Below, in pieces: positions 8,734 through 62,248 of a DNA stretch of 64,000 bases (position 1 is its first letter; every line of letters begins with the position of its first letter). The position numbers were made by a program, and so were the translations under genes. The DNA is from Nitrospiraceae bacterium (lineage in GTDB: Bacteria > Nitrospirota > Thermodesulfovibrionia > UBA6902), in assembly GCA_003599505.1 (NCBI GenBank), contig QZKO01000045.1, forward strand, positions 2,535 through 66,534, written 5' to 3'. The notes under the pieces were generated by a model that saw only the letters and a program-made list of their open reading frames with translations, did not search any database and was not told the origin of the DNA.

Positions 8734-8761
8734 TAAATCTGCCGGGACGTACGTCACTGAT

Positions 8762-10168: not shown

Positions 10169-10169
10169 T

Positions 10170-26706: not shown

Positions 26707-27963
26707 ATGAATGACAAAAAATTAAACAGAAACGATAACATCGTCCTCAGATGCTCCTTTTGCGGCAAAAGCCAGAAGGAAGTGAGGAAACTTATAGCGG
26801 GCCCTACCGTTTATATTTGTAACGAATGCGTAAATCTCTGCAATGAAATAATGGCGGAGGAGCTTGATTCATCCTTCGATATCAATGTCGCCCGGAAGCT
26901 CCCGGCCCCCGTGGAGATAAAAAATTTCCTTGATGAATACGTAATCGAACAGGACCGGGCGAAAAAGATACTTTCAGTCGCGGTGCACAACCACTACAAG
27001 CGCATTAACAGTCCCCGGCAATCCGATATCGAGCTGCAAAAAAGCAATATCCTGCTTATAGGGCCTACCGGCACCGGTAAAACCATTCTGGCGCAGACAC
27101 TCGCAAAGTACCTTGACGTGCCCTTTACGATCGCCGATGCCACAACGCTTACCGAAGCGGGATATGTCGGTGAAGACGTGGAGAATATTATTCTGAAGCT
27201 TCTCCAGGCGGCGGATTATGACCTGGAAAAGGCGCAGCGCGGCATTATATATATTGATGAGATCGACAAGATAAGCCGGAAGACGGAGAATGTTTCCATA
27301 ACGAGGGATGTGTCCGGAGAAGGGGTCCAGCAGGCCCTTCTGAAAATCATAGAAGGGACCGTGGCAAACATACCTCCCCAGGGCGGCAGGAAGCATCCGC
27401 AACAGGAATTTATACAGATAAACACAACGAATATCCTGTTTATCTGCGGCGGCGCGTTTGTGGGTCTTGAAAAAATAATCGAAGAGAGGATAGGCCGGAA
27501 AACCGTCGGTTTCGGCGTCGAGCCAAAGACCATAGCCGGAAAAAAGATAGACGATATCCTGAAACATATACAGCCGCAGGACCTGGTCAGGTATGGGCTC
27601 ATTCCCGAGTTTGTGGGGAGGCTGCCTGTTGTAGCGACCCTCGAAGAGCTGAGCGAGGAGGCCCTTGTCAGGATACTGACCGAACCGAAAAACGCAATTA
27701 TCAAGCAGTTCCAGAGGCTGCTTTCTTTTGATAACGTGAAACTGAAGTTTACAGAATCCTCCCTGACCTCCATAGCCAAAGAGGCCATCAAAAGAAAAAC
27801 AGGCGCGCGCGGGCTTCGTGCCATTCTTGAAGACGTGATGCTCGAGGTTATGTATGAAGTGCCTTCGCTCAATGACGTGAGGGAGTGCCTGATCACGGAA
27901 GAAGTTATAACCAGAAAGGAAAAGCCGATCCTTATATACGAAGAACAGGCCGAGTCCGCATAA
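26707..27963 (+). CDS. clpX: ATP-dependent Clp protease ATP-binding subunit
   Basis: N-terminal Zn-finger 'CSFCGKSQ...CNEC' and Walker A 'GPTGTGKT'. Confidence 0.95.
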
Positions 27964-28395
27964 TTATTTTTTCCCCTTTGTCAACCCGTGCGCAATCAGC
28001 GTCCTGAATTTTTCTTTCAGTTCTTCGTCCTTGAGGTTTTTGAGCGTGTTTTCGATATACCTCTTGTCTTCCTCATTTAACCCGGCCTGTTCCTTCTCAC
28101 GGGCTTCTTCTGTCTCTTCCGGAAGCCTCCCGATCCTGAACCGTATGTCGCTGACATTATACGGTTTCAGTTTCGCGGTGATCTCTTCCTTGAAGAAACT
28201 AAGGTGGTGCATCCATTGAGGGGTGTCTACGATAAGTGTAAGGACTTTGCCTTTTATTGTGTCGGGGGAAGTGTGTACTGAAACGGTTTGTCCTACAACC
28301 TCAACCCATCGTCTTCTGAGAGCATTGAGCGCAACCCCGCCTTCCAGACCATAGCTTTTTGTCAGTATTTTGAGAATACCATGGAGGGATTGCAT
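27964..28395 (-). CDS. DUF721 (DciA-like) domain protein
   Basis: N-terminal segment resembles DUF721 proteins; the C-terminus is a K/E-rich tail. Weak assignment. Confidence 0.45.
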   Translation of the reverse strand: MQSLHGILKILTKSYGLEGGVALNALRRRWVEVVGQTVSVHTSPDTIKGKVLTLIVDTPQWMHHLSFFKEEITAKLKPYNVSDIRFRIGRLPEETEEAREKEQAGLNEEDKRYIENTLKNLKDEELKEKFRTLIAHGLTKGKK

Positions 28396-28470
28396 ATAAA
28401 ACCGTTATTCGTTAATTGTTTATTACAGTCTGTTATGCCGATAACAAATAAATTATAACGCATAACGTTC

Positions 28471-28659
28471 TTAAACTACTTTCTTCACATTTCCCGAGCG
28501 GAGACACCTGGTGCAGACATGCTGTTTTTTTGTACCGTGCGTAGTCTGGACTTTTATTTTTTGCAGGTTAGGCATAAATACTCGCTTGGTCCTGTTGTTG
28601 GCGTGACTGACATTATTACCCGAAACCTTTTTCTTTCCGCAAACTGAACATACTGCCAT
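28471..28659 (-). CDS. rpmB: 50S ribosomal protein L28
   Basis: '[26 protein letters not shown]' is canonical L28. Confidence 0.9.
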
Positions 28660-28886
28660 GGTTAAAACACCTCCTTCATCCTAAACCCGAAATCCGAAGT
28701 TTGACATTATGTATTTATTAATTCGAATTTGTTTCGAATTTCGGATTTCGATATTCGAGCTTGAAGCAACTGCAATTGCTTTCAAAAGAGAAGTTATGAT
28801 AACATTAAACCAAATAAAGTTACAACTTCAGAAGCAAAACAGCAAAAAACACTAAATATTTCAGAGTTACAGGGAAAATAACCGGG

Positions 28887-31247
28887 ATGAGAATATACGA
28901 ACTGTCCAAAAAGATAGATATCAGCAGCAAAGAAATAATCGCCAGGCTTGCAGGCATGGGCATTCGGGTAAAGTCGCACATGTCGAATATCGACGATGAC
29001 GTCATGGGTAAGCTGTCGGATTTTTTTGCGAAAAAAGAAATACCCGGGAAAGAGAAGCTCCCTCCTGCTCCAGGGAAAGAAGCTCCGGTTAAACCGGCAG
29101 GGAAGCCCCATGTCGAGAAACCGCGGAAAGAACAGCCGCCGGCAGAAGTCATGCCGCAAAAAGAAAACCGGGCTGCTCAGGAAACAAAGGCAGGAGAAGT
29201 GGAAGAAGCTGTTTCAGAAGCGCCTGCGGTCCTCCATAAAAAGGCGGGGCCACCGGTGGCCGAAGAAGACGAGGTCATCGTCCCCGACAGATTCAAGAAA
29301 GAAATAGAGCGCTCGAATATTGCAAAATTCAAAGCCAAACCCGGAATGCAGCGCGCATTTGATTCCATCCGCAGGGTAGATGTTGCGAAGAAGCCGCAGG
29401 ACTTTAAACCTCATTTCAAAAAACACGATAAAAGGTCTCATATCCAGCGGGTCGAACCCGCTCCGCCCCCCCTTACAACACAGCCGAGGAAACGGGTCAT
29501 CAAGTTTCAGGAAGGCACTTCGGTAAAGGAATTTGCCGAGCTGATCGGACAGAAAAGCAACGAGGTCATTAAGAAATTTATGGAGCTCGGCTCCATGCCC
29601 ACTATCAACCAGCCTGTGGACGCGGATGCGGCGCAGATTGTCGCGGAGTCCTTCGGTTTAAAAATCGAGCTTGCAAATATCGAAACCGAGGAATCGCTCC
29701 TTGAAGAAGCAAAGGTCGAGGAAGCCGCTCTCAGTCCGCGTCCGCCGATTGTCACCATAATGGGACATGTCGACCATGGTAAAACCACCCTTCTGGACGC
29801 GATAAGACAGACAAGGGTGACCGAGACAGAGGCCGGGGGAATAACCCAGCACATCGGTGCATATAAGGTAAAGCTGAAAAACAGGGAAATAACCTTTCTC
29901 GACACCCCCGGGCACGAGGCGTTTACCATGATGAGGGCCAGAGGCGCAAAGGTAACGGATATTGTCGTCCTTGTTGTCGCCGCCGACGACAGCGTCATGC
30001 CCCAGACCATAGAGGCGATCGACCATGCAAAGGCCGCTAACGTCCCCATTGTAGTGGCGATAAATAAAATTGACAAACCTGATGCGAATGTTACAAAGGT
30101 CAGGAATGAACTTTCACAATACGGCGTGGTTTCAGAAGAATGGGGCGGACAGAACATCTTTGTTGAGGTTTCAGCGAAACAGAAAACAGGCATTGAACGC
30201 CTCCTCGAGATGATCCTGCTCCAGGCGGAAGTAATGGAGCTGAAGGCGAATTACAACAGACCCGCAAGGGGTACAATCGTTGAAGCAAAACTCGATAGAG
30301 GCAGAGGACCGGTAGGCACGGTCCTGGTCAATGCAGGCGAGCTTAAAACCGGAGACCCTTTCCTTGTAGGGACGGTTGCCGGCAGGGTCAGGGCGCTGAT
30401 CGATGACAAAGGCAAAAAGATCGAAAAAGCCGGCCCTTCAACTCCTGTCGAGGTTATAGGGTTTCCCGAGGTGCCCCAGGCAGGCGACATCTTTATTGTA
30501 ATGGAAGACGAAAGAAAAGCAAGGCAGATAGCGATTAACAGGCTCCAGAAGCAGAGGACCGCGGCAGCCACGCATATGAAGAAATTAACGCTGGACCAGC
30601 TTTATGAAAAAGTTAAAGAAGGCGAAGTGCGGGACCTGAACGTCATCATAAAGGCGGATGTTCAGGGCTCGGCGGAAGCGGTCAGGGATTCGCTTTCGGC
30701 CATCTCTCATCCGCAGGTCAAGGTAAATGTTATCCACGCGAGCGCCGGCGGCATTAATGAATCCGACGTCATGCTGGCCGCCGCGTCAAATGCGATTATT
30801 ATCGGGTTCAACATCCGGCCTGACGCGAAGGCGTCAGCGCTTGTGGAAAAAGAAGGCGTCGACGTCAGGTTATACAACATAATCTACGAGGCCATCGAAG
30901 ATGTGAAGAAGGCGCTCGAAGGACTGCTCGAGCCGACTATAACTGAAAAGGTCATCGGCAGGGCCGAGGTCAGAAGCCTCTTCCATATATCGCGTATCGG
31001 GACCGTTGCCGGATGTTACGTGACCGACGGAAAGATTTCCCGCAGCAGCTCAGGAGTCAGGGTGATAAGAGACAACGTTGTCATTTACGAGAGCAGACTT
31101 TCATCCCTGAAAAGATTCAAGGATGATGCAAGAGAAGTGCAATCAGGGTTTGAATGCGGGATCATGGTGGAAAATTTCAATGACCTCAAGGTCGGCGACA
31201 TACTTGAAAATTATGTCAGGGAAGAAGTCGCCGCGAAACTGGAATAG
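28887..31247 (+). CDS. infB: Translation initiation factor IF-2
   Basis: GTPase G-domain '[14 protein letters not shown]...DTPGHEAF...NKIDK' preceded by a K/E/P-rich N-terminal region. Confidence 0.95.
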
Positions 31248-31275: not shown

Positions 31276-31557
31276 ATGATCGTCGGCCTCCTTACACTTG
31301 ATCTACACATATTTGAATCACATTCTTTAAAAGAAAAACGGTTTGTCATCAAAAGCCTTATCGACAGGATAAAAAACAAATTCAATGTCTCGGTAGCCGA
31401 AGTCGACGCCAACGACCTCTGGCAGAGGGCCGTAATCGGCATAGCCTGCGTCTCGAATGAGACAGTGATGGTCAATAAGGTTTTTGAGCAGATCAAAAAC
31501 CTGGTCCTGGGCACGCATTCCGTGGAATTAATCAATTCCACAACGGAGTTGTTGTAA
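31276..31557 (+). CDS. DUF503 protein (YlxP-like, conserved infB-downstream gene)
   Basis: 'MIVGLLTLDLHIFESHSLKEKR' is typical of DUF503, which normally lies between infB and rbfA. Confidence 0.8.
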   Translation: MIVGLLTLDLHIFESHSLKEKRFVIKSLIDRIKNKFNVSVAEVDANDLWQRAVIGIACVSNETVMVNKVFEQIKNLVLGTHSVELINSTTELL

Positions 31558-31588
31558 TGAAGTTAACGATCCTCCTCTATTGAAAAAA

Positions 31589-34096
31589 TTATCCTTCTAA
31601 TCTTGCCTCAAGCTCCGATTTGAAATCTCTATAAGTCTTTTCTTTCAATTTCTTAAAGAATAAATCATAACTCATTGGAGATAGAAATTTGAAATAATAT
31701 TTATGTTCCTGTTGCAGTTCATTAAGCCTGTTAAAGTGTTTTCTTGAATATTCAAGTTTTTTCCTATTCTCATCCCCTGATATTCCTTCATATGCTTTAT
31801 CATCTTTAATTTCTACCACAAGAATATCATTCAATATTTTTATGAAAAAATCAGGATTAAAACTCCCCTGCTTAGGATGCTCGCCTTTACGCCAGGAATA
31901 ATCAATCTTGTAAAAGCCTATATCAGGAGATTTAAACCATGCATCAATTATTCTGGAATTTTCTTCTTTGATTAGGCCCTTGATAAATTTTCGTTCAGGC
32001 TCATAAGCAGCCAATATTATATTCAGGTGCGTTTTGAAGTTGTATCTGTTTGCCACTTTTATAATAGCTGATTTTGGTAAACTCTCATCTTCATCAAGTT
32101 CTTTCAAAAGCTTAATATCTTCTGCTTCTCCTAAAATCAAAGAGTTGTCATCAAAGAATATTGTCCCATCACGTCTAAGCGACCCAATGCCAATGCTATT
32201 TTTCTTAACTTTAGTAGTACTAATTTTATATGGTTCATTTGATTTTGGGACTATCCTTGGGAAGATACTACTCTTTCTCTTAATAACGCCAAATGCGCGC
32301 AATGCTTTCAATCTATTTTCCTCACTGATAAAACTTGTCTTATCTTTTATTTCCTTTAAAGATTGTTGGATAACTTGCTCAATCCGTTTTTTAGTCCATA
32401 TTTCACTGTAGTTAGTTCCTGCATCCTGATCAAAGATATACAGCCGGTTAAAGATATCATTAGCAACATTTTTCACGGGATGCATATTCCTTGCAATATA
32501 ATATTCCCGTTTTTCTCTAAATCCTGTTATTACTGTCTCATATTCTGTTTCTTCTGGTACGATTGCATCTTGACTTGAAAAAGTTATATATCCTTTCTTG
32601 AGCAACTCAAATTCGTCCTCTTTTGGATACTCCTTATTTTCTCCTATGACCTTCTCATAATCAATCTGGTATAAATCAAAGTTGTAGTTCTCTTTCTTAT
32701 TTACAGGATAAGAATGGATTCTTTTCTCAATCTCAAGAACTTCATCTACCAGGTGTTTGATACTGCCTGACCATTTATCATGATTGAAAACTGTGACAAC
32801 TGGCTGATCTCCCTTATAGACTTCAGGTATCCTTAACCCTCTTCCTAAGACCTGCGCAATAAGAAGTTTTGAATTAAACGCCCTTTCCTCATGTGGAACA
32901 ATTTGAAAAACATTTTTAACATCCCAGCCTTCGGAAAGCATACTGACAGAAGCAATCCACTCTACAGGATTGTCTTTATCGTCTACCCTTCGCAGAATCG
33001 GGATATTGTTCTTATGTTCATTGGCAGAAGTAACAATTAAAACCTTCTCTGCCGCTTTCTCTTTGCTGATCTTCTCCTGTTTAGCAAGAAAAGTTATCAG
33101 CTTATCAGTCACTCGTTTACAGGCTGCTATGTTCTTTGTAACAAGGATAGTTATGGGTTTTACTTTCCGATATTTTATTTTCTTGTTTTCAATATGATTT
33201 TCGTAAATTTTCTGAAACTTCTCGTCCTCGTTTCCTGATGAGTCTTCAGCTACATAACGGATGCTTTTAACAAACTTTGACTCAATAGAATCTCTCAAAG
33301 AAAAGCGATGGATTACATCCGTGAAATAGTCATCTCCGATGTAGCAGGTACCTGAAAGGTTCACGATAAACCTGAATCCATATTTAGTGTCAAGCAGAAA
33401 TTCCTTCCACTTTTTGAGCGCAGTATCCGATGGACTCATAAGGTGATGAGCTTCATCGTTCAAAATGAGTGTTCGCTCCCCTTCCCCTACAAGGCTGTCT
33501 TCAATTGCTGATTTGGTATTTATGTAAGTAGCGTGAATATTCTCAATGCATATATCGCCCTTTTGAATGGTGTTAGATGCATTGATAATGCGTGGATTGA
33601 TTATTTTGGAATCAGCAGGCAAAAGTTCTTTTAAAGTTTTATCGGCTGATAGTGTTCTGAATTTTTCTGTTAAACCGGTCTCAATAGTATTTGACGGGCA
33701 GAGGACTAAAACCTGATCAACTGCGCCCTCTGCAAGCATAAGACGTGCAATGCCGTACATCACATAGCTTTTGCCTGTAGCCGTAGCATGCTCCAAAGAA
33801 CACGAAAGTTTATCAGGCAATTGCAGATGGGTTACAAAATCATCAATCGATGAATACTTCTCCTGAAGCTTTGGATTTTTGTGGTAGTTTTCTTCTACTA
33901 AATCCATGAGGCTTTTGTATTCACCGCCTAAAAAGTAGCGCAACGTCTCCCTGATTGCCTCTTTTTGATATTCCCTATTCTCACAGAGAGCATCTAAAAA
34001 AGCTTCATACTTGTTTGGGTCAAACCTTTTGGGGTCATAGTTGGGAGATATCTTGAGGACTAAATCTTTGTTTTGAAAAGTTTGACGGTCAAGCAT
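31589..34096 (-). CDS. res: Type III restriction enzyme Res subunit (SF2 helicase + PD-ExK nuclease)
   Basis: Walker A 'ATATGKSYVM', DEAH-box 'LILNDEAHHL' and a C-terminal 'NPDFFIKI...LVVEIKDDK' PD-(D/E)xK motif. AT-rich. Confidence 0.8.
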   Translation of the reverse strand: MLDRQTFQNKDLVLKISPNYDPKRFDPNKYEAFLDALCENREYQKEAIRETLRYFLGGEYKSLMDLVEENYHKNPKLQEKYSSIDDFVTHLQLPDKLSCSLEHATATGKSYVMYGIARLMLAEGAVDQVLVLCPSNTIETGLTEKFRTLSADKTLKELLPADSKIINPRIINASNTIQKGDICIENIHATYINTKSAIEDSLVGEGERTLILNDEAHHLMSPSDTALKKWKEFLLDTKYGFRFIVNLSGTCYIGDDYFTDVIHRFSLRDSIESKFVKSIRYVAEDSSGNEDEKFQKIYENHIENKKIKYRKVKPITILVTKNIAACKRVTDKLITFLAKQEKISKEKAAEKVLIVTSANEHKNNIPILRRVDDKDNPVEWIASVSMLSEGWDVKNVFQIVPHEERAFNSKLLIAQVLGRGLRIPEVYKGDQPVVTVFNHDKWSGSIKHLVDEVLEIEKRIHSYPVNKKENYNFDLYQIDYEKVIGENKEYPKEDEFELLKKGYITFSSQDAIVPEETEYETVITGFREKREYYIARNMHPVKNVANDIFNRLYIFDQDAGTNYSEIWTKKRIEQVIQQSLKEIKDKTSFISEENRLKALRAFGVIKRKSSIFPRIVPKSNEPYKISTTKVKKNSIGIGSLRRDGTIFFDDNSLILGEAEDIKLLKELDEDESLPKSAIIKVANRYNFKTHLNIILAAYEPERKFIKGLIKEENSRIIDAWFKSPDIGFYKIDYSWRKGEHPKQGSFNPDFFIKILNDILVVEIKDDKAYEGISGDENRKKLEYSRKHFNRLNELQQEHKYYFKFLSPMSYDLFFKKLKEKTYRDFKSELEARLEG

Positions 34097-34100
34097 AATT

Positions 34101-34613
34101 TCATTTCACCTCTGACCTGAAATCAGCTTTGTGTATACCCGCTTGTATTCTTTTTCTTGCTTCTTCAAAAGATTTCGTATCAGTTGAAGGAGAAAATTGA
34201 ACTATCAGATTGTATTTCTCTCGTAACCGCTTAACATTATGATAAAACTCTTCTTCTGAATAAAAATCTTTGAAAGTTTCATGTAACGATCTTGCTTCAT
34301 GTATTAATACTGTAAAATTCTTAGCAGCAAATAGGTGGTCTTTCGACTTTTTATCGTGTTCTAAAAGAATGTTTAGGATCGAAACTATACCTGAAAATAT
34401 AGTAACCCACGAAATCCAATTAGGCATTCCTAAAATCAAGGCAAAGGCACTCAAAACTGTAATTGCTGGCGGTACAAATTTATACCAAAAAGCTTTTCTG
34501 GAAAGCTTTTTCTCTATAATATAATGGGTTTCGGCAGTATAATTAGAATCTTCCTGAATCTGGTTACATTCTGCTATTAAGTTTTCAATTTTATTATTAT
34601 TCATGGTAAGCAC
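34101..34613 (-). CDS. SLATT-like 2-TM effector protein
   Basis: 170 aa with an N-terminal helix, a central pair of TM helices ('FVPPAITVLSAFALILGMPNWISWVTIFSGIVSILNILL') and C-terminal helices, the topology of SLATT domains. Overlaps the SMODS gene by 17 nt and ends 4 nt before the res start. Confidence 0.55.
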   Translation of the reverse strand: MLTMNNNKIENLIAECNQIQEDSNYTAETHYIIEKKLSRKAFWYKFVPPAITVLSAFALILGMPNWISWVTIFSGIVSILNILLEHDKKSKDHLFAAKNFTVLIHEARSLHETFKDFYSEEEFYHNVKRLREKYNLIVQFSPSTDTKSFEEARKRIQAGIHKADFRSEVK

Positions 34614-35547
34614 TTACGGGAAATGGAGCATCAAAAAGCTTTCTCCATGCCTCAATGGCTTCATTGTCACTCATAGCAAAAGTTTTTTTACAATGCTCAG
34701 CGATCTTATCAAACAACGTCGAGAGTCCTTGTTTTTCGGTTATAGACATATATCCGTCAGAAGAAGGAGATTTGCTTGCAGGTATATTTGCGGCTTTTAA
34801 AACTTCATCTTTACCCAGCAAGAAAAAATTATAAACTAAACTTGGATAATTAATTTGCCATTTTTGTTCTTTATAATAGTTAATTATAATTAAGATCAAA
34901 GATGCTGCTATCACTTCAAGATGATAAGATTTCATCATAGGGAATAGATTTCTTTTAGCAGCCTTAAGTATTTTAATTATAGGGATGAGATACCCATCAC
35001 TATTTTCATTTGATGATGCGATATGTTCCGCATCATAGTCATAATCAGCTATGACCCATTTATTATTTTTAGGAATCCAGTAACCTCTCCCTACCGGAAG
35101 AGTCGAAGTTCCATCAGGAGCTTTACCTATTTGATCAAGATACGCAGGAACAAGCTCAACTTTTACATTATCTTCATATTCAAAAGTTATTGTGGGATTA
35201 TCAGTCTCTACACCAAGTTTTTCATACGTTCCATGCTCAGTTACAATATCTTCTATCTTCTCCAGTGCATCTTCCGGTTTTATACCACCAGAAGGCAACC
35301 AGTTATAGAAGCTTCCTAATATAACCAATATATCAATATCAAAAATATCTTCCGACCATGGCTGTATTCTTGTCTTTCTTTGCAATGATCCGATCAATTT
35401 CGTCTCAATGGTTGAATCATATGATTCAATCCATTCCCTGATTGCATTGTGATGTGTTGTTACCTCTTCTTGGAAACTTTGGCTTAACTCAAGTTTTGAC
35501 TTGAACAGATTAAAAGCTTGAGTTATATTTAGAGCCATATTTATCAC
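34597..35547 (-). CDS. SMODS-family nucleotidyltransferase (CD-NTase-like second-messenger synthase)
   Basis: Pol-beta-type NTase signature '[23 protein letters not shown]' (GS-x14-DxD) and third acidic strand 'KVELVPA'. Overlaps the mod stop by 4 nt (ATGA). Confidence 0.65.
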
Positions 35548-37522
35548 TTCCTCCCAAAATCTTTTAAACTTTTTATTTCCCGCTTCTCATTCCCAAATAT
35601 ATCAATGTAAATAATCATGACTTGCCCTTTGACTTTATCGTCAACAAACCTCACCTCATAGTCGTTCTTCTTTAAATCCTCTGCGTAAAAAACTTCGTCA
35701 AGGTCAAAAACTTCTCCGTCAAAATCATAGTCCAGCATGACCATTGAAAGTGTCTCAAGGTTGGCAAATTCAACAGGTTTGCGGGAGATAATTCTGCTCT
35801 CAAACTTTTCAATCTTAATGACGCATTCTTTTATCTTCTGATTCAGCAGATCAGGATTTTTAGGTTTATCCAGATAATATTTGCACTCGACTGTCGGCAC
35901 CTGAACAAAGTCAAATCCTACAGCATCCACCGTATCATTGACATCCATTTCACTTACCGGTTGTTTTATCTTGGTAAATCCACGATTATGGATTTCCTCA
36001 ATAATGGAATAAGGGATGCGGAGAACAAAATATTTTGATTTTCCCTTAGCAATATAATCTTCAAGGAATTGTACCGAGGCAGCGGGTACGACGATGAAAA
36101 AGCGCCTGCCGATTTTGTCTCCAAGATACTTGTGTAGATCATCAATAAAGCCCCTGTCTAACATGGCATTTTTATATTTCTGGTAATTGAAGACAAGGAC
36201 GCTGTCCTCTCCAAGATAGCCATCGAGTTCAATCTTTGAAATCTCATGTTTTTCATCTCGGCACTGAAAGAGCTTTAATGCAAAGTCCCGATACTCCTCC
36301 CATGGAAGTCCTTTAAGCATTTTGTAATCGTAAAGACCTGCATTATAAAGAGTGAAAGGGTTACACTGCTTGCTGAATTTCTTTTTTGGATTCTCAAGGT
36401 CTTTGCTTTCACCAATGTTCAAAAAACGCTTTTGCATTGTATAAATTGCCAGCTTTCCACAGTCCACACCGATCCAACTCCTGCCGAGTTTTTCTGCAAC
36501 AGCAAGGGTAGTTCCTGAACCGGCAAAGCAGTCAAAAACAAGGTCGCCGGGGTTTGAAGAGGCTTTGATGATGCGTTGGAGCAAGGCTTCAGGTTTTTGG
36601 GTAGGGTAGCCAACCTTTTCAGTAGAAGTCGGGATTTGTTGAAAAGACATAATATCGTCCCAAACATCTCCGATAGCTTTTCCTTTTTCCATCACTTCAT
36701 CTAAATAACGTCTGCCACCTCTCCCGTCAAAATATTTCCTGCCGTCCTTATCTACTTTGTTGAATCTATCTATATATTCTTGTCGATGCTGGACGGCGAG
36801 TTTATTAAACATAAAGTCGTTGTTTTTAGCATAAAACAATAGAACATCATGACCTCTAATCCAGTTTTCAGCCTGCGTTTTAAATCCAGAGAGAACGCGA
36901 GTGTCCCAAACTACTTCTCTCTGGAAATGTTGTTCACCAAAAACCTCGTCTAAGAGAATCTTTATGTAGTGCCCTTTTTTTTCATCCAGATGCACATAAA
37001 TACTTCCATCTTCGCTCAATAACTCCTTCAAGCCCAAACAAGTCGCTTTCGTAAGAACTCCAGAAACCTCGCCCCTGCAATTTTGTCCTGATATGCTTTT
37101 TGATCCTGACTTCCACGAAACTCCTGCTTTGTTGCAAAGGGAGGATCAATATAAATTAATCTTACGCCCAGTGTGCCGTCAGCATTTTTGAGTTTTCCTT
37201 TATCCTTCATCTGCAAGAGGGTCTTCAACACTTGAAGGTTGTCGCCAAAGATGAGCATGTTTGTCCAACCGTTGCCGTTTTTACCATTCCGGAAGGTTTT
37301 TACTTTCTGCAAAGGCACAGCCATTGTATCAGCAAGGATATCTTCCTCACGATCCTTGTCGGAATAAATTAGCTCGTACTCTTTCTTGGTATCAAAGAGG
37401 AGGGAATGTTTAAGATTATTAAGCTGCGATATGAGGGCGTCTTTATGCTCTTTTGATAGCGGGTTACCTTTTACAAGAAGGCTTACAATTTCTTCAATAG
37501 CATTATTGGATAGTGTTCTCAT
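35544..37522 (-). pseudogene. mod: Type III R-M modification methyltransferase (Mod, N6_N4_Mtase family), disrupted by a -1 frameshift
   Basis: N-terminal fragment 37028..37522 carries 'IYIDPPFAT' (motif IV, DPPF). C-terminal fragment 35544..37037 carries 'YPTQKP...[15 protein letters not shown]' (motif I). The fragments overlap in different frames. Adding one T to the T3 run (plus-strand AAA at 37036-37038) restores a continuous '[24 protein letters not shown]' reading frame. Confidence 0.7.
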
Positions 37523-37672
37523 TTGTTTATTACTAATAGAATCAATTCAAACCTATTATTGGCCCCAATGGGTATAAGATAAGACCTAATACCACTATTT
37601 GTCAATGTTAATTAGGTGTATTGATACATTCACAAACCTTCCTTGTTAATCGCATGATTATGGGGAGGTTAA

Positions 37673-37990
37673 ATGAAAACAAAAGAGCTGATAGGCAAAA
37701 GAATTCAGGAGCTAAGAAAAAGAAGTGGTCTTTCTCAAGAGAAAGTTGCAGAGAAGGCAGATATCAACCCTCATTATCTCAGCCGTATCGAATGCGGCAA
37801 AGAAAACCCCACCCTCGACATGCTCATAAAACTCTCCAATGCCCTTGAAATTGAAATGTGGGAGATGTTTGACTTCGGGCATGTTACCGAAAAGAAGATA
37901 CTTAAAGAATCTCTCCAAACGTTCCTCAAAACCGCTGACGAACCTACCCTCCGCCTCGCCCTGAAAATCATCAGGGCTATTACAAGATAG
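37673..37990 (+). CDS. XRE-family HTH transcriptional regulator (possible controller of the divergent R-M/defence operon)
   Basis: 'LSQEKVAEKADINPHYLSRIECGKENPTLDMLIKLSNAL' HTH_XRE motif. Divergent from mod. RBS 'ggggagg' precedes the ATG. Confidence 0.8.
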   Translation: MKTKELIGKRIQELRKRSGLSQEKVAEKADINPHYLSRIECGKENPTLDMLIKLSNALEIEMWEMFDFGHVTEKKILKESLQTFLKTADEPTLRLALKIIRAITR

Positions 37991-38053
37991 CTTTCTTTCC
38001 CCTATCTTTTTATCACCTGTGATAAAATAACTTAAACGTGACAGGAGGTAATT

Positions 38054-38293
38054 ATGCCGAAAACCATAGAGGCTATTTATGAGGATGGGGTTTTCAAGCC
38101 TATTAAGAAAATCCGCCTTAGAGAACATGAAAAAGTTGAACTGTCTGTACTGACAAAAGCCGAGATTGATGATGTGGCCCGGAAGGCATTAAGCATAATA
38201 GGGATAGGGGGAAGCGGATTGAAAGATACCGCCCAGAGGCATGACGAATATCTTTACGGGAAGAAGCGACATATGCTGAAGAGAAAGAAATGA
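38054..38293 (+). CDS. DUF104-family antitoxin
   Basis: 'MPKTIEAIYEDGVFKPIKKIRLREHEKVELSV' is the characteristic DUF104 antitoxin N-terminus. Its stop overlaps the PIN gene start. Confidence 0.6.
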   Translation: MPKTIEAIYEDGVFKPIKKIRLREHEKVELSVLTKAEIDDVARKALSIIGIGGSGLKDTAQRHDEYLYGKKRHMLKRKK

Positions 38294-38706
38294 TATTTGT
38301 TGATACGGGTGCGTGGGTTGCAATTGCTGATAAAAACGATCAATATGCAAAAGAAGCAAGTCAACAATATACGAGTTTTATTCTAAAAAAGGAGAGGCTT
38401 GTTACATCCAATTTAATCCTTGTTGAAACTTATAATCTCCTTTCACAGACTATAGGGGCCAAAGCTACAATCAGGTTTGGAAATATCCTGAATTCAACCA
38501 ATCTTGTCAGAGTCGAGATCATTACAAAAACAGACTGGGATAGGGGCTGGAAAATTCTTGAGAAATATGATGATAAAGAATTTTCTTTTACGGATTGCAC
38601 AAGCTTTGCTTTAATGGAACGGTTAAAAATAAGAACCGCTTTTTCTTTTGATGCACACTTTGTACAGTATGGTTTTACTAAAATTCCCCCAACGATCCTA
38701 AGGTAA
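38290..38706 (+). CDS. PIN-domain toxin (VapC-like)
   Basis: 'MIFVDTGAWVAIADKND' (first acidic residue) and 'FSFTDCTSFALMERLKIRTAFSFDAHF' (C-terminal acidic residues) of the PIN fold. Confidence 0.8.
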   Translation: MIFVDTGAWVAIADKNDQYAKEASQQYTSFILKKERLVTSNLILVETYNLLSQTIGAKATIRFGNILNSTNLVRVEIITKTDWDRGWKILEKYDDKEFSFTDCTSFALMERLKIRTAFSFDAHFVQYGFTKIPPTILR

Positions 38707-38730
38707 TCCCTTCAATCATTTTACGACGTA

Positions 38731-39228
38731 TCAAGGAATCTCTTCTAATGAACCAACCGGAGAATAAAATCCATAATCAATCATACGGTTCAGGATTTCA
38801 TCGGCCTTTTTGGGATTAACAGCTTTTCTTCTCACTGCTTTTACAAGAATCCCTATTGTGCCTGTCAATTTAATTCCTGATAAACTTGCCTCTCTTCTTG
38901 CTGCCTTATCGTCACATGCAAATACAAAACCTCTTGCTTTTGCAAGAGAAATACAGGAGGCTTCTCCAAAACCCAGTGATACGGAAAGCGATTCAAAGAG
39001 GGCTTTTTCACTCCTGCTGCGAAGTGTTATTTCTTTGAGCCAGCCATTTCTCAAAGCTTCTCTTATTCTGATAAGCTGGTTGAAGCCTGCAAGTACACCC
39101 TTAGTATTTTCAGCAGACACAAAGTCTGTAATATATGCATTATTTGCGTATAAGATTTTAATTATATCAAGGGAATCCGACAGGGCAAAATTACTCAGGA
39201 CACAATTGTCGAAAATTATTTCAGGCAT
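38731..39228 (-). CDS. DUF3368 / PIN_3-family nuclease-like toxin
   Basis: 'IIFDNCVLSNF...GEASCISLAKARGFVFACDDKAAR' matches COG2405/DUF3368 PIN-like proteins. Confidence 0.65.
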   Translation of the reverse strand: MPEIIFDNCVLSNFALSDSLDIIKILYANNAYITDFVSAENTKGVLAGFNQLIRIREALRNGWLKEITLRSRSEKALFESLSVSLGFGEASCISLAKARGFVFACDDKAARREASLSGIKLTGTIGILVKAVRRKAVNPKKADEILNRMIDYGFYSPVGSLEEIP

Positions 39229-39532
39229 TTACTGAATCCTGAGCAATCTCATCCAGGTCCTGTATTTTAAGAGAGATATGATGCTCTTTCAGGTAAAGCC
39301 GCGCGCTTTCAGGATCAATGCCCAGAATTTCCGAAAGCTTTCCAAGACTGATGAAGCCTTCCTTATACGCCTCAATCGCAATCAATTTTCTATGTTCAAG
39401 AGAACTCCTCTTTTTATAAGTAATATCCACAGACTCCCTTACAAGCTCTCCGAGAGATTTCCCCTCTTTTCTTGCATAAGTTTTTAATTTTTTATGCTGT
39501 TCATCAGTTAGTATTATATTGGTCCTTTTCAT
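39221..39532 (-). CDS. RHH + UPF0175-family antitoxin (partner of DUF3368)
   Basis: N-terminal ribbon-helix-helix 'TNIILTDEQHKKLKTYARKEGKSLGELVRESV', then C-terminal UPF0175-like 'AIEAYKEGFISLGKLSEILGI'. Overlaps the toxin gene by 8 nt. Confidence 0.6.
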   Translation of the reverse strand: MKRTNIILTDEQHKKLKTYARKEGKSLGELVRESVDITYKKRSSLEHRKLIAIEAYKEGFISLGKLSEILGIDPESARLYLKEHHISLKIQDLDEIAQDSVNA

Positions 39533-39544
39533 ACCGCCTCCGGC

Positions 39545-39568
39545 ATATATGTGTAATTATATGTGTAA
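39545..39568. promoter_or_regulatory. Perfect tandem direct repeat TATATGTGTAAT x2 immediately upstream of the RHH antitoxin gene (candidate operator)
   Basis: Read directly at 39545-39556 and 39557-39568, 13-36 nt upstream of the antitoxin start (39532, minus strand). Confidence 0.45.
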
Positions 39569-39789
39569 TATAGCATTGCCTGGAATAGAGAGTCAATCCG
39601 GATTTTTAATTATCTTCCAGTCGTTCTGTCCATACTTTCCCTCAATTCATTTTTTAAATATGCTACAATTAAAACACATCAATTAATGTATTTGGCATTA
39701 ACATGAAATCAGGTAAAAATTTCTGAATTCCCGATCAAGCCGGGAATGACGGCCTATCTAAGGGTTAATGACTGAAGCGAGAGGAAACC

Positions 39790-40167
39790 ATGCATCCATA
39801 CAAACGCTCGGCGCGTGTCGGTGACCTGATAAGGGAAGAAATCGCCGACATTATAATGAACAAGATCAAGCATAAAGACCTCGGTTTTGTCACTGTTACC
39901 GGAGCGAAGGTAAGCGACGATTTGAGGAACGCAACAATATACCTGAGTGTTCTGAAATATGAAGACGCAAACAAGACCCTGCGGAAGCTCAATTCATTGT
40001 CGGCATTAATTAAAGGCGAACTCGGCAGGAGACTGAAGATGAAGTACGTGCCGGCCCTTGCTTTCAGAATCGACGAATCAATCCAGTACGGCATGAAAAT
40101 AGACAAATTGCTTGATGAAGTTAAATCGGAAAGGAGTCACCCTGACGAAGATGAAGATCTCTTCTAA
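39790..40167 (+). CDS. rbfA: Ribosome-binding factor A
   Basis: 'RSARVGDLIREEIADII...LGFVTVTGAKVSDDLRNATIYLSV' is canonical RbfA. Confidence 0.9.
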   Translation: MHPYKRSARVGDLIREEIADIIMNKIKHKDLGFVTVTGAKVSDDLRNATIYLSVLKYEDANKTLRKLNSLSALIKGELGRRLKMKYVPALAFRIDESIQYGMKIDKLLDEVKSERSHPDEDEDLF

Positions 40168-46790: not shown

Positions 46791-47168
46791 TCAGCTTTTT
46801 TTAATTTTCGCTGCCAGTTTTCTCATTTCTTCTTCTGTCGGTTTTTGTCCGCGCAACGTCCTGAAAAAGGCAGGAAGCATCCTTACGACTTCAGGGTCGG
46901 ACATAATGTCTTTGGGAATAATTCCCCGGTTGGCGGCGGCAAGGTCAAAAAAAGCATACCAGTCACTGCTGCCCTTTGTGATACCCAAGGCTTCTGCATA
47001 GCGTTCCAGTATGTCGGGATCCTGAGGCGGAGGCATAGCGCCCCGTTCGATCCGGCTGACATTTGCCGGGTCAGCGGATGCCTTGAGACAAAATTCTCTG
47101 AGAGTTATCCTCTTATTTTTTCGAAGGCTCTTTAGAAAGGCTCCAAAAGACTTATATTCGCCACTCAT
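46791..47168 (-). CDS. XRE-family HTH regulator (CapH-like)
   Basis: 'ITLREFCLKASADPANVSRIERGAMPPP' HTH_XRE motif, paired with the ImmA/IrrE peptidase. Confidence 0.8.
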   Translation of the reverse strand: MSGEYKSFGAFLKSLRKNKRITLREFCLKASADPANVSRIERGAMPPPQDPDILERYAEALGITKGSSDWYAFFDLAAANRGIIPKDIMSDPEVVRMLPAFFRTLRGQKPTEEEMRKLAAKIKKS

Positions 47169-47195
47169 AGTTCCCCTTCCATCGACTTGTATTTG

Positions 47196-47212
47196 TTGTA
47201 CAATTATTACAA
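47196..47212. promoter_or_regulatory. Inverted repeat TTGTA-N7-TACAA (contains palindrome TTGTACAA), candidate operator upstream of the XRE gene
   Basis: Read directly: 'ttgtacaattattacaa' lies about 30 nt upstream of the XRE start codon (47168, minus strand). Confidence 0.4.
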
Positions 47213-47271
47213 ATTTATCAGGTTAAAGTCAACAATTAGTGAGTATAACACCATAGAATTTTTCCAGACGA

Positions 47272-50200
47272 TTACATCTTATTATATTTTTTATACAAAT
47301 CTCTCAAAAATTCATAACCCTTCATCCCGTAAATATTACATAGGTTATCAGCATCTTCTTTATGTCCATTAATGTAGAGTTTTTCAACTATTGAGCGGAT
47401 GTGCTCTTGTCTGAAATCAGTGATAAAATGTTCAAGCATTTTCAGCAATATCTTCCCGATATAGGCAATGCTTGCAGGATCGTCGAATTTATCGAGGTAT
47501 TCAATGATGAAGGACGAATGATAATCTTCGTTTGCGAAAGGGGCTGCCAGCATCAGCCACTGTGAATATTCCTCATGAATATATGGAAGGTAAATTGCCA
47601 ATTTTCCAAGGGCGGACAATATTTTCTTGTCATCAGAGCTTATATCTTCCTTAGGTTTTGTCTTATATTTATTATCATAGATCCACTTCCAGCAATAGAT
47701 AATTTTATCGACGATTTTCCGGCTCTCTTCTTTTCCATCCTCAATCTGTTTCTGGTTTGACCAGAAAAAGCTGACAACATTCAATATTTGTTCTCGATTC
47801 CAAGCATCTAAAACATTCCTGAATAAACTTTCAGGGTTGCTTATATCCTCATTCCCAAGCAAATATCCCAGGGCTATGTGCTGCACCAAATGTTCAATAT
47901 CATGTTTATTCTTAAATTCATATGTTATCCCAAGTTTATAGTGAGGGATCATAAGGTTGTAGAGATCATCGTAAACTTTGCCGATCGACAAGTAACCATC
48001 CATGAAAGCTACCCAGTACTTATCAACTGTAACCGGGTACAAACCTTTGATTCTTTCTTCGGCCCATGCTTTGTCCAAATAGAACAAATTAGGCAGATAT
48101 CGACCAAGGAAAGTGTAACTCTCAATAATCTTCTTTTCTAAAAGCTCATCATATTTCCCCTTAATCTTCGAACTCCATTTTATTTCCGCTTCAACACCAG
48201 CTCTATCATTGGTACGAGCAATCCTCAAAGCGAGATTTATGAATGCGGACAATGTCTTCCCATGCGAAGAATTTAAAGCATGAGTTACATAATCCGACTT
48301 TTCCTCTTCTTCCTCTGCTTTCAGATTATCAAAGATAAGAAACAGGATTTGTTCTGCTTTCTTTAAATACTTCTCATCAAACGCCCATGAATCATCTCTC
48401 GTTCCTTCTCGTATAAAGTCTGTGATTACACCAATTATCCAGAAATGATTGGCTCCGCCGAGAAAATCCTCTTTTTCAACTATGAATTCATCTTTCCAAA
48501 ATTCATTCCTATCAATATATAGGTGCAGAAATTCAAATAATTTACCCCAGGCAATATCCAGCTTTTTACTCCATGCTTCCTTTGCGCCATCAAGAATTTC
48601 ATAAATATATATAAATCCGGTGTTGATGAATGGAGATAAGTTGTCGATAAATTTATTTGGCTGCTCAGCAGCACATTCTTTTATTAATTTTGCCAATCCC
48701 CCTACGGTAGGGCCTTCTTCCCAAAGACCCGTTGATGATTTAAACTCCTTGAGGTAAGAAGGAAGTTTGTTTGTGGTCAACATATGCAAAATATCTTCTT
48801 TTGTTAAAGGCGAAGTCCCCCAACCAGATCGAATTTTAATCTCTCCCATGGCCGCGTGTAAGCCCACATCCCAGCCAGTTTGAGACTTAAAAGATTCATA
48901 TAATTTTTTAAATTCCGGAAATCTTACAAGTGCCTGACATCTTTGCTGTTTCCACTCTGCAATGTGTCTTTCTGCATCTTTCGCAGGAACAAATCCGGGG
49001 CCATCATTCAGTTTCCTGAATATTAATTCTTTTTGATTAGATGATAGTTCTAATAAATTCTCTAAAACATGTTTCAACTCGTCTCCGAAATCTATTTCTC
49101 CGAAAACAAGATTATCTGAATCCTTTTCTAATGCATCCCAGAATACTTCACTATATTTGTTGACATTATTTCCAATGATATATAGGGCCATCTTCGGAAA
49201 ATAAAAATATTTATCCCTAAAAAAGTCTTGCAATATTTTTTTTGTTTCAGCGGCATGTTTCCATGCCCTTGCCATTAGAATACTTTTCAAGACAAATGTA
49301 AGTACCTCAAGCGGGTCTGTAAGGTGGTTTCTTGATTCATCATAAAAACTTGCATGTGTTTCCTCATCATGAAAGTTGCGATATAGCCTATAAATATTTC
49401 TTTTTAATTCTTTTATATCTATACTCTTAAGCAGCACATCTTTTGTTAACTCATCAAATACGTTAGATGAGAAGTTGTCTAATGTAGTCTCATCCATTGT
49501 TATTTTCTTAAGTGGTGTTCCTCCCAGTTTCTTCTTCCTGAACACATATTCATAAACATCAGACTCAGTCTTATAACCCATATCAAAAAGCTTTACTGAA
49601 TATTTAGCGTCAATAGATGTAAGCGCTAACAGATATGCTTTATCCCCTGCCTCAAAAGGAATTAATGATTCATCTTTTTTCAGTAAAGTGTGTATCTTGT
49701 CACATAAAGGATATATAGCGCCATTTGTACACTTTTCTCCAATATCTCCAGAGAGTTTTTCAAATATAGTCTTTACCCAATATGAATCTATAACAAGTTT
49801 ATATTCCTCTTCTTTGTTATAGATTCGGGCTCTCTCTTCGGACAACTTAACAGACTTTATGTTAGTTATATAATCAACAATCCGTTCAGCTTTAGTAATA
49901 TCCTTATGGGAAGGATTTCCAGACAGGAATTTAGGCAATAATTTGAGGCCAATTTCTGATCCCACAAACGATGCATCAAACCTGGAACTAAGCCAAACAG
50001 GAATTAACTCAATAATATAAATCGGTATTTCTTCTCTCGGAATATTAAGCAAGATTGATACAAAACTTCGCCATGTATAGTAGTTATCTATATGTTGACT
50101 ATCTGAGTTTTTATAATTTGAAACAGCGTTAATGATTTGGAGTAACTCATCTATATACTTTTTATTACCTTGTTTATTGACTTGCTCGGACACCTTTTCT

Positions 50201-62227: not shown

Positions 62228-62248
62228 CTGATCCTCCTTAATTAATAT

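Follow-up and report, generated by a model that had tools for sequence, protein, structure and literature searches.

The window analysed here, a 64,000-nucleotide stretch of contig QZKO01000045.1 from a Nitrospiraceae bacterium, carries an AT-rich defence island of about 8.06 kb between DUF503 (ylxP-like) and rbfA, two genes of a string devoted to translation and ribosome maturation. The island is modular, consisting of a Type III restriction–modification (R-M) operon of five open reading frames (ORFs), an XRE regulator, and two toxin–antitoxin pairs. Within the operon, a CD-NTase (SMODS) gene and a SLATT gene are nested between mod and res, the methyltransferase and restriction genes; many uncultured bacteria show the same nesting. 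An initial annotation of this DNA had named the same families (Type III R-M, SMODS/SLATT, XRE, DUF104-PIN, and RHH/UPF0175-DUF3368), and Pfam, PADLOC, and NCBIfam agree with it. However, it had listed SMODS/SLATT beside the R-M system, as a separate neighbour, when the pair in fact lies inside that system; and the Type III R-M system that it listed does comprise mod and res genes, but with mod frameshifted into two ORFs. The island, its native flanks, and the nested operon are laid out below; loci from other genomes are designated throughout by L numbers.

31276..31557, plus strand: DUF503 (ylxP-like), the native left flank (Pfam DUF503, E 1.9e-32).
31558..39620, no strand: the defence island, ~8.06 kb, delimited by its deficit in GC and in GC at third codon positions (GC3), by empty sites in relatives, and by homology limits.
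31589..34096, minus strand: res, Type III restriction subunit, 835 aa, apparently intact (Pfam ResIII, E 6.6e-16).
34097..35543, minus strand: the cargo slot between the mod stop and the res start, here filled by SMODS–SLATT (DNA homology limits against L171-L174).
34101..34613, minus strand: SLATT_4 two-transmembrane effector, ATG likely at 34604, 167 aa (Pfam SLATT_4, 29.6 bits against a cut-off of 27).
34597..35547, minus strand: SMODS/CD-NTase-like nucleotidyltransferase, ATG likely at 35538, 313 aa (Pfam SMODS, E 2.9e-17).
35544..37037, minus strand: mod C-terminal fragment, 497 codons, with the FxGxG AdoMet motif (Pfam N6_N4_Mtase, E 1.6e-37; PADLOC MTase_III, E 8.3e-40).
~36612-36925, minus strand: variable target-recognition region of mod, a non-homologous block in every pairwise DNA comparison.
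37028..37522, minus strand: mod N-terminal fragment, 164 codons, with the DPPF catalytic motif, ending RKRLVWA* (PADLOC MTase_III N-terminal matches).
37030..37046, minus strand: the mod frameshift, +2 nt relative to homologs, within CTTGTTTGGGCTTGAAGG (a 2-nt gap in blastn alignments with each of L089, L081, and L086).
39790..40167, plus strand: rbfA, the native right flank (Pfam RBFA, E 1.2e-30).

The genes of the nested operon follow one another on the minus strand in the order mod, SMODS, SLATT, and res, with gaps or overlaps of only a few nucleotides: mod stops at 35544, SMODS probably starts with the ATG at 35538 and stops at 34597, SLATT probably starts with the ATG at 34604 and stops at 34101, and res starts at 34096. 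As judged from this layout, mod–SMODS–SLATT–res is one operon. The cargo thus separates mod from res by 1,447 bp (1.45 kb), and the direct adjacency of the two genes that is canonical for Type III systems is lacking in the window. Res itself looks functional. Its alignment shows invariant helicase motifs (ATATGKS, LNDEAHH, and QVLGRGLR) and a C-terminal PD...EIK nuclease motif (FNPDFF...VEIKDD), the combination of an SF2 helicase with a PD-(D/E)XK nuclease. Its homologs number 5,234, several of them named 'type III restriction enzyme' at source, and form more than 120 clusters at 74% identity or above; the PADLOC REase_III matches are weak, and a PDB sequence search gave no match.

On the Mod side, the beta-class N6/N4 methyltransferase domain, DPPF, and FxGxG are all encoded but, as assembled, split by the +2-nt frameshift. 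The block at 36612-36925 (~310 bp) is the sole part of the cassette without DNA homology to related loci, flanked on both sides by DNA that is 76-80% identical, which fits a swapped target-recognition region and hence different specificities. The two extra nucleotides sit at CTTGTTTGGGCTTG, where the reading frame changes, and this position falls between the DPPF and FxGxG motifs. No tandem or simple-sequence repeat was found in the window mod, the lesion lying in a T3G3 context only. A Type III Res needs its Mod for target recognition, and loss of Mod removes methylation together with cleavage, without self-restriction. Because mod is frameshifted and Res depends on it, the Type III system is probably off as encoded, with methylation and restriction both lost, if the indel is real.

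Such lesions recur among relatives, in which four other independent mod lesions were found, all of them different and all within the first ~250 codons: an in-frame stop in L171 (EFRGS*DQK), a frameshift near residue 245 in L173, another frameshift near residue 245 in L081-83 (in three assemblies), and, in L172, a perfect 47-nt tandem duplication (L172:3000-3050) that frameshifts the gene. Res is full-length in all of the mod-lesion loci except L087. The L172 duplication reads as a recent population polymorphism, because L215, ~99-100% identical and at the same genomic site in another sample, has an intact mod of 673 aa; it could be a reversible OFF switch that operates without a simple-sequence repeat. 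The recurrent loss of mod thus resembles the ON/OFF switching of Type III systems without their classical phasevarion repeat tracts, with the reservation that ON and OFF alleles were seen between the near-identical loci L172 and L215, which belong to a relative and not to the window's own population.

The cargo in the window pairs a nucleotidyltransferase with a small membrane protein. The former scores 63.8 bits against Pfam SMODS (cut-off 26.5) and matches the PADLOC oligonucleotide cyclase model over its full length (E 4.1e-40), with catalytic residues, G53-S54 and D70-x-D72, that are invariant in 31 homologs. Its PDB matches are weak, comprising the 'Nucleotidyltransferase' chains 6p82, 6p8u, and 6p8j (E ~1e-8) and the CdnD chain 9ntn; on plasmids, only cyclases from CBASS (antiphage defence that signals through cyclic oligonucleotides) at 22-27% identity were found, and among viruses, one contig. 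By its weak structural matches and its sub-threshold NCBIfam score, the window cyclase is divergent. The SLATT partner reaches 62.1 bits against NCBIfam SLATT_4 (cut-off 55) and matches the PADLOC 2TM effector model (E 6.6e-18), and its Kyte-Doolittle profile has two hydrophobic segments, at about residues 45-64 and 66-85. SLATT lies downstream of the cyclase in almost all of the 89 loci that have downstream sequence. Searches of the island with Pfam and PADLOC found none of the Cap2, Cap3, HORMA, or TRIP13 ancillary genes, so that the arrangement is that of Type I CBASS: a CD-NTase with the GS...[DE]x[DE] signature, an adjacent effector, and no ancillary genes. An inverse signalling scheme of the Panoptes kind, which likewise joins a nucleotide synthase to a 2TM effector, was set aside, as Panoptes uses mCpol and not SMODS.

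To place the cassette in context, homologs of the cyclase (288 matches) were traced to their contigs, and a metagenome scan added 80 loci. The order mod–SMODS–SLATT–res recurs in L089 (cyclase 84% identical) and L086/87 (60%), and, with an additional DUF1016/YhcG gene before res, in L081-83 (76%) and L088 (78%). The partial contigs L090, L092, L099, L115, and L117 are consistent with it, and in L123 (cyclase 47%) the order is mod–res–SMODS–SLATT. Pairwise identities of the four genes co-vary (r = 0.89-1.00), which argues that mod–SMODS–SLATT–res has largely been inherited as a unit. The cyclase family is far smaller than the Res family, with only ~12 clusters at 71% identity or above. Several of these loci show features of their own. 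In L086 (11987-16476; Thermodesulfovibrio), an intact cassette directly abuts Tn7-like genes of the tniQ/tniB/tnsB type, a possible vehicle for the cassette; its sister contig L087 encodes the same cyclase protein with res split into ORFs of 360 and 484 aa. An insertion sequence (IS) element with a DDE_Tnp_1 transposase lies between SMODS and a truncated SLATT at L088:2307-3863, in a cassette otherwise conserved. In L103 the cassette has mostly decayed: SMODS is frameshifted, and mod and res persist only as remnants.

Close relatives of the window Res show that the junction between mod and res holds different genes in different loci:

L174, Res 78% identical: mod–res slot empty (3-nt junction).
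L171, Res 85% identical: AriA/OLD/GajA-like ATPase in the slot.
L172 and L215-217, Res 84% identical: DUF3644 (PDC-S19) and DUF1016/YhcG (PDC-S02) in the slot.
L173, Res 80% identical: two small ORFs, an LmuB-like SMC ATPase, and an MNT-type nucleotidyltransferase (PDC-S09) in the slot.

The limits of this exchange are sharp. Between the window and L171-L174, DNA homology breaks off 8-27 nt before the mod stop (35544). On the res side it starts again at the first base of the start codon (34096) in L171, L172, and L174, and one base further in for L173. On this comparative evidence, the mod–res junction of this R-M clade is a slot for variable cargo. Among more distant Res relatives (38-51% identity), all seven viral-contig loci (L175-L181) are plain mod–res. 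When Res sequences are placed in a neighbour-joining tree, different cargo states intermingle within the crown clade and the SMODS–SLATT locus L086 branches outside it, a pattern that fits an early capture of SMODS–SLATT followed by replacement or loss.

The same SMODS–SLATT lineage, defined as loci of at least 5 kb with a cyclase at least 52% identical to that of the window, extends to Type I R-M operons. In L104 the order is hsdM–SMODS–SLATT–hsdS–hsdR, and in L118 and L119 the pair again lies between hsdM and hsdS (all three confirmed with Pfam); five further loci (L100, L106, L110, L114, and L120) show the hsdM–SMODS–SLATT–hsdS pattern by tblastn. The pair is directly upstream of hsdR–hsdMS in L095-97 and follows hsdS–mcrB–mcrC in L107. 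Altogether, ~14 of ~17 distinct lineage loci are embedded in or adjacent to R-M genes, the exceptions being L084/85, L109, and L111, versus 1 of ~24 loci (L123) in clades below 50% cyclase identity. Among the hosts are two Type III subclades and no fewer than three Type I architectures. From these contexts, the lineage appears almost confined to R-M operons, of Type III and Type I alike, or to positions adjoining them.

How might such a nested pair act? The cyclase would make a nucleotide signal on infection, and SLATT would permeabilise the membrane. Co-transcribed from the mod promoter, the cargo would gain co-transfer and co-regulation, and would form a second layer of defence behind restriction. 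Under the explanation that we consider best, the balance tips modestly towards SMODS–SLATT being a self-contained, minimal Type I CBASS-like abortive-infection module; a functional coupling of this cargo to the restriction system would be a further step. The strong bias of the lineage towards R-M operons lends itself to a second reading, in which SMODS–SLATT is held silent by Mod/Res (or HsdM/HsdS), much as PrrC is, and is released when a phage disables the R-M complex by anti-restriction, for instance with an Ocr-like DNA mimic or an enzyme that degrades SAM, so that failed restriction becomes abortive infection. Besides the skewed counts, this guard model draws on the same-strand position inside an R-M operon, found in ~10 Type III and ~10 Type I loci; on the association with two R-M types that differ in mechanism, the pair mostly following the methyltransferase gene directly; on the co-divergence of SMODS–SLATT, mod, and res, which holds to as low as ~45% identity and also under a changed order (L123); on the AriA/OLD-like alternative cargo in the same slot, PARIS being known from the literature to be Ocr-triggered; and on the precedents of PrrC and EcoR22I, together with published work on back-ups of the anti-anti-restriction kind and on cell death that a Type III system itself triggers on Ocr. 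However, close relatives with no detectable R-M neighbour (L084/85, L109, and L111) imply that the module can stand alone. Strict masking, moreover, predicts cargo either unleashed or useless once mod is lost, and in the window the two cargo ORFs have stayed intact beside a frameshifted mod. Embedding may also simply provide co-transfer and co-expression (bioRxiv 10.1101/2024.01.29.577857). On balance, a guard role for the pair is a doubtful proposition, if a coherent one. A slightly more speculative extension, by analogy, would make the mod–res and hsdM–hsdS junctions a dedicated docking slot for interchangeable abortive-infection modules, with CD-NTase–SLATT as a CBASS triggered by the state of the R-M complex, such as inhibition through Ocr-like mimics or SAM depletion, in which case the frequent and seemingly reversible mod knock-outs might modulate both layers.

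The island that houses the operon is set off from its surroundings by composition. One-kilobase windows across 31-40 kb have a GC of 0.33-0.41, and both sides lie at 0.47-0.53 (0.52 at 29-31 kb and 0.48-0.50 beyond); the island as a whole is at 0.374 (8,063 bp) versus 0.462 for the remaining window. At the level of genes, GC3 is 0.27-0.49 in the island and 0.55-0.60 in clpX, infB, DUF503, rbfA, nrnA, truB, and asmA. GC, which the initial annotation had proposed computing along the window together with codon usage, and GC3 therefore both set the island below its surroundings, a shift in composition that is characteristic of a genomic island.

Comparison with relatives, likewise proposed there as a test for an ancestral arrangement, bears directly on whether this DNA was inserted. 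Species-representative genomes were scanned with translation initiation factor 2 (IF2), 80 infB loci were fetched, and the window proteins were mapped onto them. IF2 places the window in Nitrospirota/Thermodesulfovibrionia, with a groundwater metagenome-assembled genome at 84% identity as the best match. The string clpX, dciA (minus strand), infB, DUF503, rbfA, nrnA, and truB is kept in most of the closer Nitrospirota relatives; in the loci L001-L054, as in the window (26707-31247), infB is preceded by clpX and an opposite-strand dciA in most of the relatives fetched. Elsewhere, nusA usually precedes infB. In 15 relatives that carry DUF503 (IF2 identity 63-84%), the gap from DUF503 to rbfA is only 45-220 bp, and infB abuts rbfA in more than 35 further Nitrospirota that lack DUF503. 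The island genes are absent from all 80 infB loci fetched. An alternative would have the common ancestor already carrying the island genes, with later deletion from the relatives. What support it has comes from the sampling, as the comparison covers species-level representatives, the nearest at 84% IF2 identity, and leaves the near history unsampled; exact-protein look-ups with DUF503 and RbfA, for other strains with or without the island, returned nothing on record. Against it stand all 15 of the short DUF503–rbfA gaps, the many genomes with infB next to rbfA, the GC3 deficit, and the occurrence of homologous cassettes elsewhere in unrelated genomic contexts. The 15 empty sites, the absence of island genes from 80 loci, and the GC3 deficit make an insertion far more likely, and an ancestral origin highly improbable. 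The AT-rich defence island between DUF503 and rbfA that the initial annotation proposed is therefore borne out, and its test of an ancestral arrangement turned up empty infB–DUF503–rbfA sites.

Both flanks of the insertion are well conserved. DUF503 is 90% identical to its ortholog in L001, where rbfA begins ~130 bp later, and rbfA is 82-85% identical to the orthologs in L001 and L052; downstream of it come a DHH/DHHA1 gene (nrnA-like) and then truB. The left junction lies within 31558-31583, because the homology of the restriction cassette to other copies ends at 31583-31593 in DNA comparisons; the distance from the DUF503 stop to the res stop is 31 nt. On the right, a promoter-like site of the UPF0175–DUF3368 operon at 39596..39567 and a native leader starting at ~39640, where homology to the empty site of L052 begins, together bracket the junction at ~39597-39640.

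39640..39789, plus strand: native rbfA upstream region, with a promoter-like site at 39692-39720 and a hairpin at 39727-39747 (aligns with the L052 empty site).

Thus, the interval first proposed for the island, 31560-39789, does contain it, but its rightmost ~150 bp (about 39640-39789) are native and conserved in L052. The hairpin noted near the right edge has had a similar fate: with the form ATTCCCG-atcaagc-CGGGAAT at 39727-39747, it is real, has a perfect 7-bp stem, occurs once in the window, and arose in 0/100 shuffles, yet it is no feature of the island. It has no Rfam match, and its local fold (z-score -0.25) is no better than that of shuffled sequence. In the L052 empty site, the intergenic DNA that aligns with ~39640-39789 contains the AT-rich promoter-like block and the hairpin with identical arms, so that the hairpin belongs to the native rbfA leader and was ruled out as an island edge or att site. 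The insertion therefore lies 1-25 nt past the DUF503 stop and upstream of a pre-existing rbfA promoter and leader, and, in one Thermodesulfovibrionia-like lineage, splits the string into infB–DUF503 and rbfA–nrnA–truB. That pre-existing promoter would explain how the junction tolerates 8 kb of mostly opposite-strand DNA.

What brought the island here is less apparent from its ends. None of the ORFs scanned with Pfam belongs to an integrase or transposase family, in line with the initial annotation; no tRNA lies near the island, the sole tRNA in the window being tRNA-SeC at 58 kb; and no flanking direct or inverted repeats of at least 8 nt were found at the junctions, where a check for direct repeats had been proposed. 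Repeats of 14-31 nt are imperfect and internal, and so look like chance. Integrase or transposase, tRNA target, and flanking repeats, the classical features of an integrative island, are hence all missing. The island would have arrived through recombination between the conserved genes that flank it, or through illegitimate recombination, and not through site-specific integration. A degraded mobile element, integrative or transposon, now without its integrase and ends, or else an assembly chimera, would be an alternative account. The Tn7-like neighbours of L086/87 and the IS element inside the cassette of L088 lend some colour to the former, and the metagenomic origin of the window to the latter; but the lack of integrase, transposase, tRNA, and terminal direct or inverted repeats speaks against a mobile element, and a chimera would imply that the assembly was wrongly joined twice, each time precisely, at a single intergenic site, since both flanks (clpX–dciA–infB–DUF503 and rbfA–nrnA–truB) are in perfect synteny with relatives. 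Both are improbable, and recombinational insertion of foreign DNA is the reading retained here.

The initial annotation had further proposed a defence-island hotspot in a conserved operon, of which the insertion stands, and the hotspot is thinly supported. Its support comes from L036 (IF2 75%), which carries a different, unrelated 1.5-kb insert at the same DUF503–rbfA junction (L036:12735-14222), consisting of a single ORF of 450 aa that has a SEC-C motif at its N-terminus and, at its C-terminus, an antitoxin-type Xre_MbcA_ParS_C domain. The junction has thus been used at least twice, with an occupancy that is low in the sample (2/16 DUF503-carrying relatives). As such, an island at a core-gene junction is ordinary.

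Taken together, these observations lead us to a joint reading, to which we assign a probability of roughly 0.8, of a foreign island with a nested Type III R-M/SMODS–SLATT operon, in which the mod–res junction is a variable slot, the cargo is CBASS-like, and mod is frameshifted, with the R-M system probably off. Several points weigh against it. The genome is metagenome-assembled, and the 2-nt indel in mod might stem from a mistake in assembly or consensus calling; the R-M system would then be intact. No sequence scar documents how the island inserted. The cyclase scores 112.6 bits against NCBIfam CBASS_cyclase_b, below the 200-bit cut-off for an equivalog-level match. The sample of contexts is modest, comprising ~10 distinct Type III and ~10 Type I loci that are metagenomic and not phylogenetically independent; the correlation between gene identities was likewise built from non-independent pairs, and the trees are simple neighbour-joining ones without support values.

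The remaining island genes, which lie between the nested operon and the right junction, are as follows.

37673..37990, plus strand: XRE-family helix–turn–helix (HTH) regulator, divergent from mod (Pfam HTH_3, E 2.6e-14; PADLOC HTH_VI, E 5.8e-17; R-M 'Control_protein', E 5.2e-14).
38054-38293, plus strand: AF2212-like (DUF104) antitoxin (Pfam AF2212-like, E 4.3e-15).
38290-38706, plus strand: PIN toxin with a 4-nt overlap with the AF2212-like ORF, a VapBC-like pair (Pfam PIN, E 4.1e-14).
38731-39228, minus strand: DUF3368 gene with an 8-nt overlap with the UPF0175/RHH ORF (Pfam DUF3368, E 3.9e-7).
39221-39532, minus strand: UPF0175/RHH antitoxin-like gene with a ParD-like N-terminus (Pfam UPF0175, E 1e-8).
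39546-39569, minus strand: perfect 12-bp tandem repeat, TATATGTGTAAT x2, over the -10 element (tandem repeat score 48).
39596..39567, minus strand: promoter-like site of the UPF0175–DUF3368 operon (10/12 matches, extended TG, by promoter scan).

The XRE regulator was considered as a conserved controller of the cassette but finds no support in that role, being absent beside the cassette in other loci. An ORF of 138 aa at 37712-38128 (minus strand), antisense to XRE and overlapping the start of the AF2212-like gene, has no Pfam or PADLOC match and was treated as spurious. Both toxin–antitoxin pairs have the predicted Type II architecture, in which the gene for a small antitoxin runs into that of a PIN or PIN-like protein downstream. 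The UPF0175/RHH–DUF3368 region also matches PADLOC PDC-S70 (E 1.2e-16), and the tandem TATATGTGTAAT repeat is probably the operator of its antitoxin.

Other low-GC regions occur in the window. A second island (46791-51316; GC 0.30-0.39) contains an XRE HTH gene (46791-47168, minus strand) and a DSR1-like defence sirtuin, apparently split into two overlapping ORFs: a SIR2 part of 288 aa (50450-51316), matching PADLOC Dsr1 positions 20-237, and a second part of 1061 aa (47272-50457), matching Dsr1 positions 576-1226 (E 1e-137). Either the gene has undergone fission or it is frameshifted. At the window end (61052-63928), a third stretch of low GC (0.35-0.39) encodes a 391-aa PNP_UDP_1 phosphorylase-superfamily protein that matches PADLOC PDC-M60C (E 1.9e-34) and a CBASS-type 'PN-superfamily' effector model, and adjoining it is a 559-aa protein without a family match. 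Surface-polysaccharide genes at 6521-11606 (GC 0.40-0.43), namely, a Polysacc_synt flippase, a methyltransferase, a Capsule_synth protein, and a 544-aa protein with no family match, probably mark another variable region.

Set against known systems, the components of the nested operon are familiar and their arrangement less so. Its host genes resemble Type III systems of the EcoP15I and EcoP1I type, with a beta-class Mod (DPPF, FxGxG, and a variable centre), a Res that combines an SF2 helicase with PD-(D/E)XK, and mod upstream of res, although neither Res nor Mod was matched to EcoP15I, the one PDB sequence search made for the two, with Res, giving no match. As in phase-variable mod genes, mod in this clade is recurrently inactivated while res remains intact. 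In contrast to EcoP15I and the phasevarions, cargo separates mod from res, the lesions are heterogeneous (+2 nt, nonsense, 47-nt duplication, and frameshifts), and there is no repeat tract. That mod is lost repeatedly while res stays intact suggests that, in uncultured groundwater bacteria, Type III systems switch between ON and OFF states and do so without classical repeat tracts.

The cargo, for its part, shares with Type I CBASS a two-gene cyclase–effector make-up without Cap2/Cap3 or HORMA/TRIP13, a conserved GS...DxD, and full-length PADLOC matches; it differs in the divergence of its cyclase and in a lineage that is habitually embedded in R-M operons instead of standing alone. PrrC, within the Type IC system EcoprrI, is similarly a suicide effector inside an R-M operon, and offers a precedent for a back-up when restriction is inhibited. 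PrrC, however, is an ABC-ATPase/anticodon nuclease, for which masking by EcoprrI and activation by T4 Stp have been demonstrated, whereas the window has a nucleotidyltransferase with a membrane effector in a Type III (or, in relatives, Type I) host. The four-gene unit is clonable, and thus offers a way into the question of which trigger sets off a minimal Type I CBASS-like module, with failure of restriction as a candidate.

At the level of the genome, the site resembles core-genome defence hotspots in holding variable cargo at a fixed place between housekeeping genes, with no integrase and a second insert in a relative. It is distinguished from them by its position within a translation and ribosome-maturation string (infB–DUF503 and rbfA–nrnA–truB) and by its low occupancy.

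SMODS and SLATT were defined in 2015 by Burroughs and colleagues, who are said to have described such systems as sometimes combined with R-M. Full-text literature searches found no account that places a CD-NTase at the mod–res or the hsdM–hsdS junction. The closest parallel is with defence genes embedded in Type I R-M, BREX, DISARM, and Hma systems, from which the notion of 'guilt-by-embedding' derives (Payne et al., bioRxiv 10.1101/2024.01.29.577857), and with DarTG2 embedded in a Type I R-M system (PMC12255303). As in those cases, accessory defence genes are interposed, in the same orientation, between those of a host system, and the cargo varies among close relatives; moreover, the slot cargo PDC-S02/DUF1016, PDC-S19/DUF3644, and PDC-S09 are PADLOC phage defence candidates that were themselves defined by embedding. 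The published survey covers Hma, BREX, DISARM, and Type I R-M, with Type III mod–res and CBASS unmentioned (bioRxiv 10.1101/2024.01.29.577857). Here, in contrast, the host is a Type III clade, the slot is exactly bounded, the cargo is a CD-NTase with SLATT, and the same lineage recurs between hsdM and hsdS. Within a modest sample, the nested slot therefore extends the pattern of embedded defence genes from Type I R-M, BREX, DISARM, and Hma to Type III systems, and the Type III mod–res slot becomes a new place to mine for defence genes.

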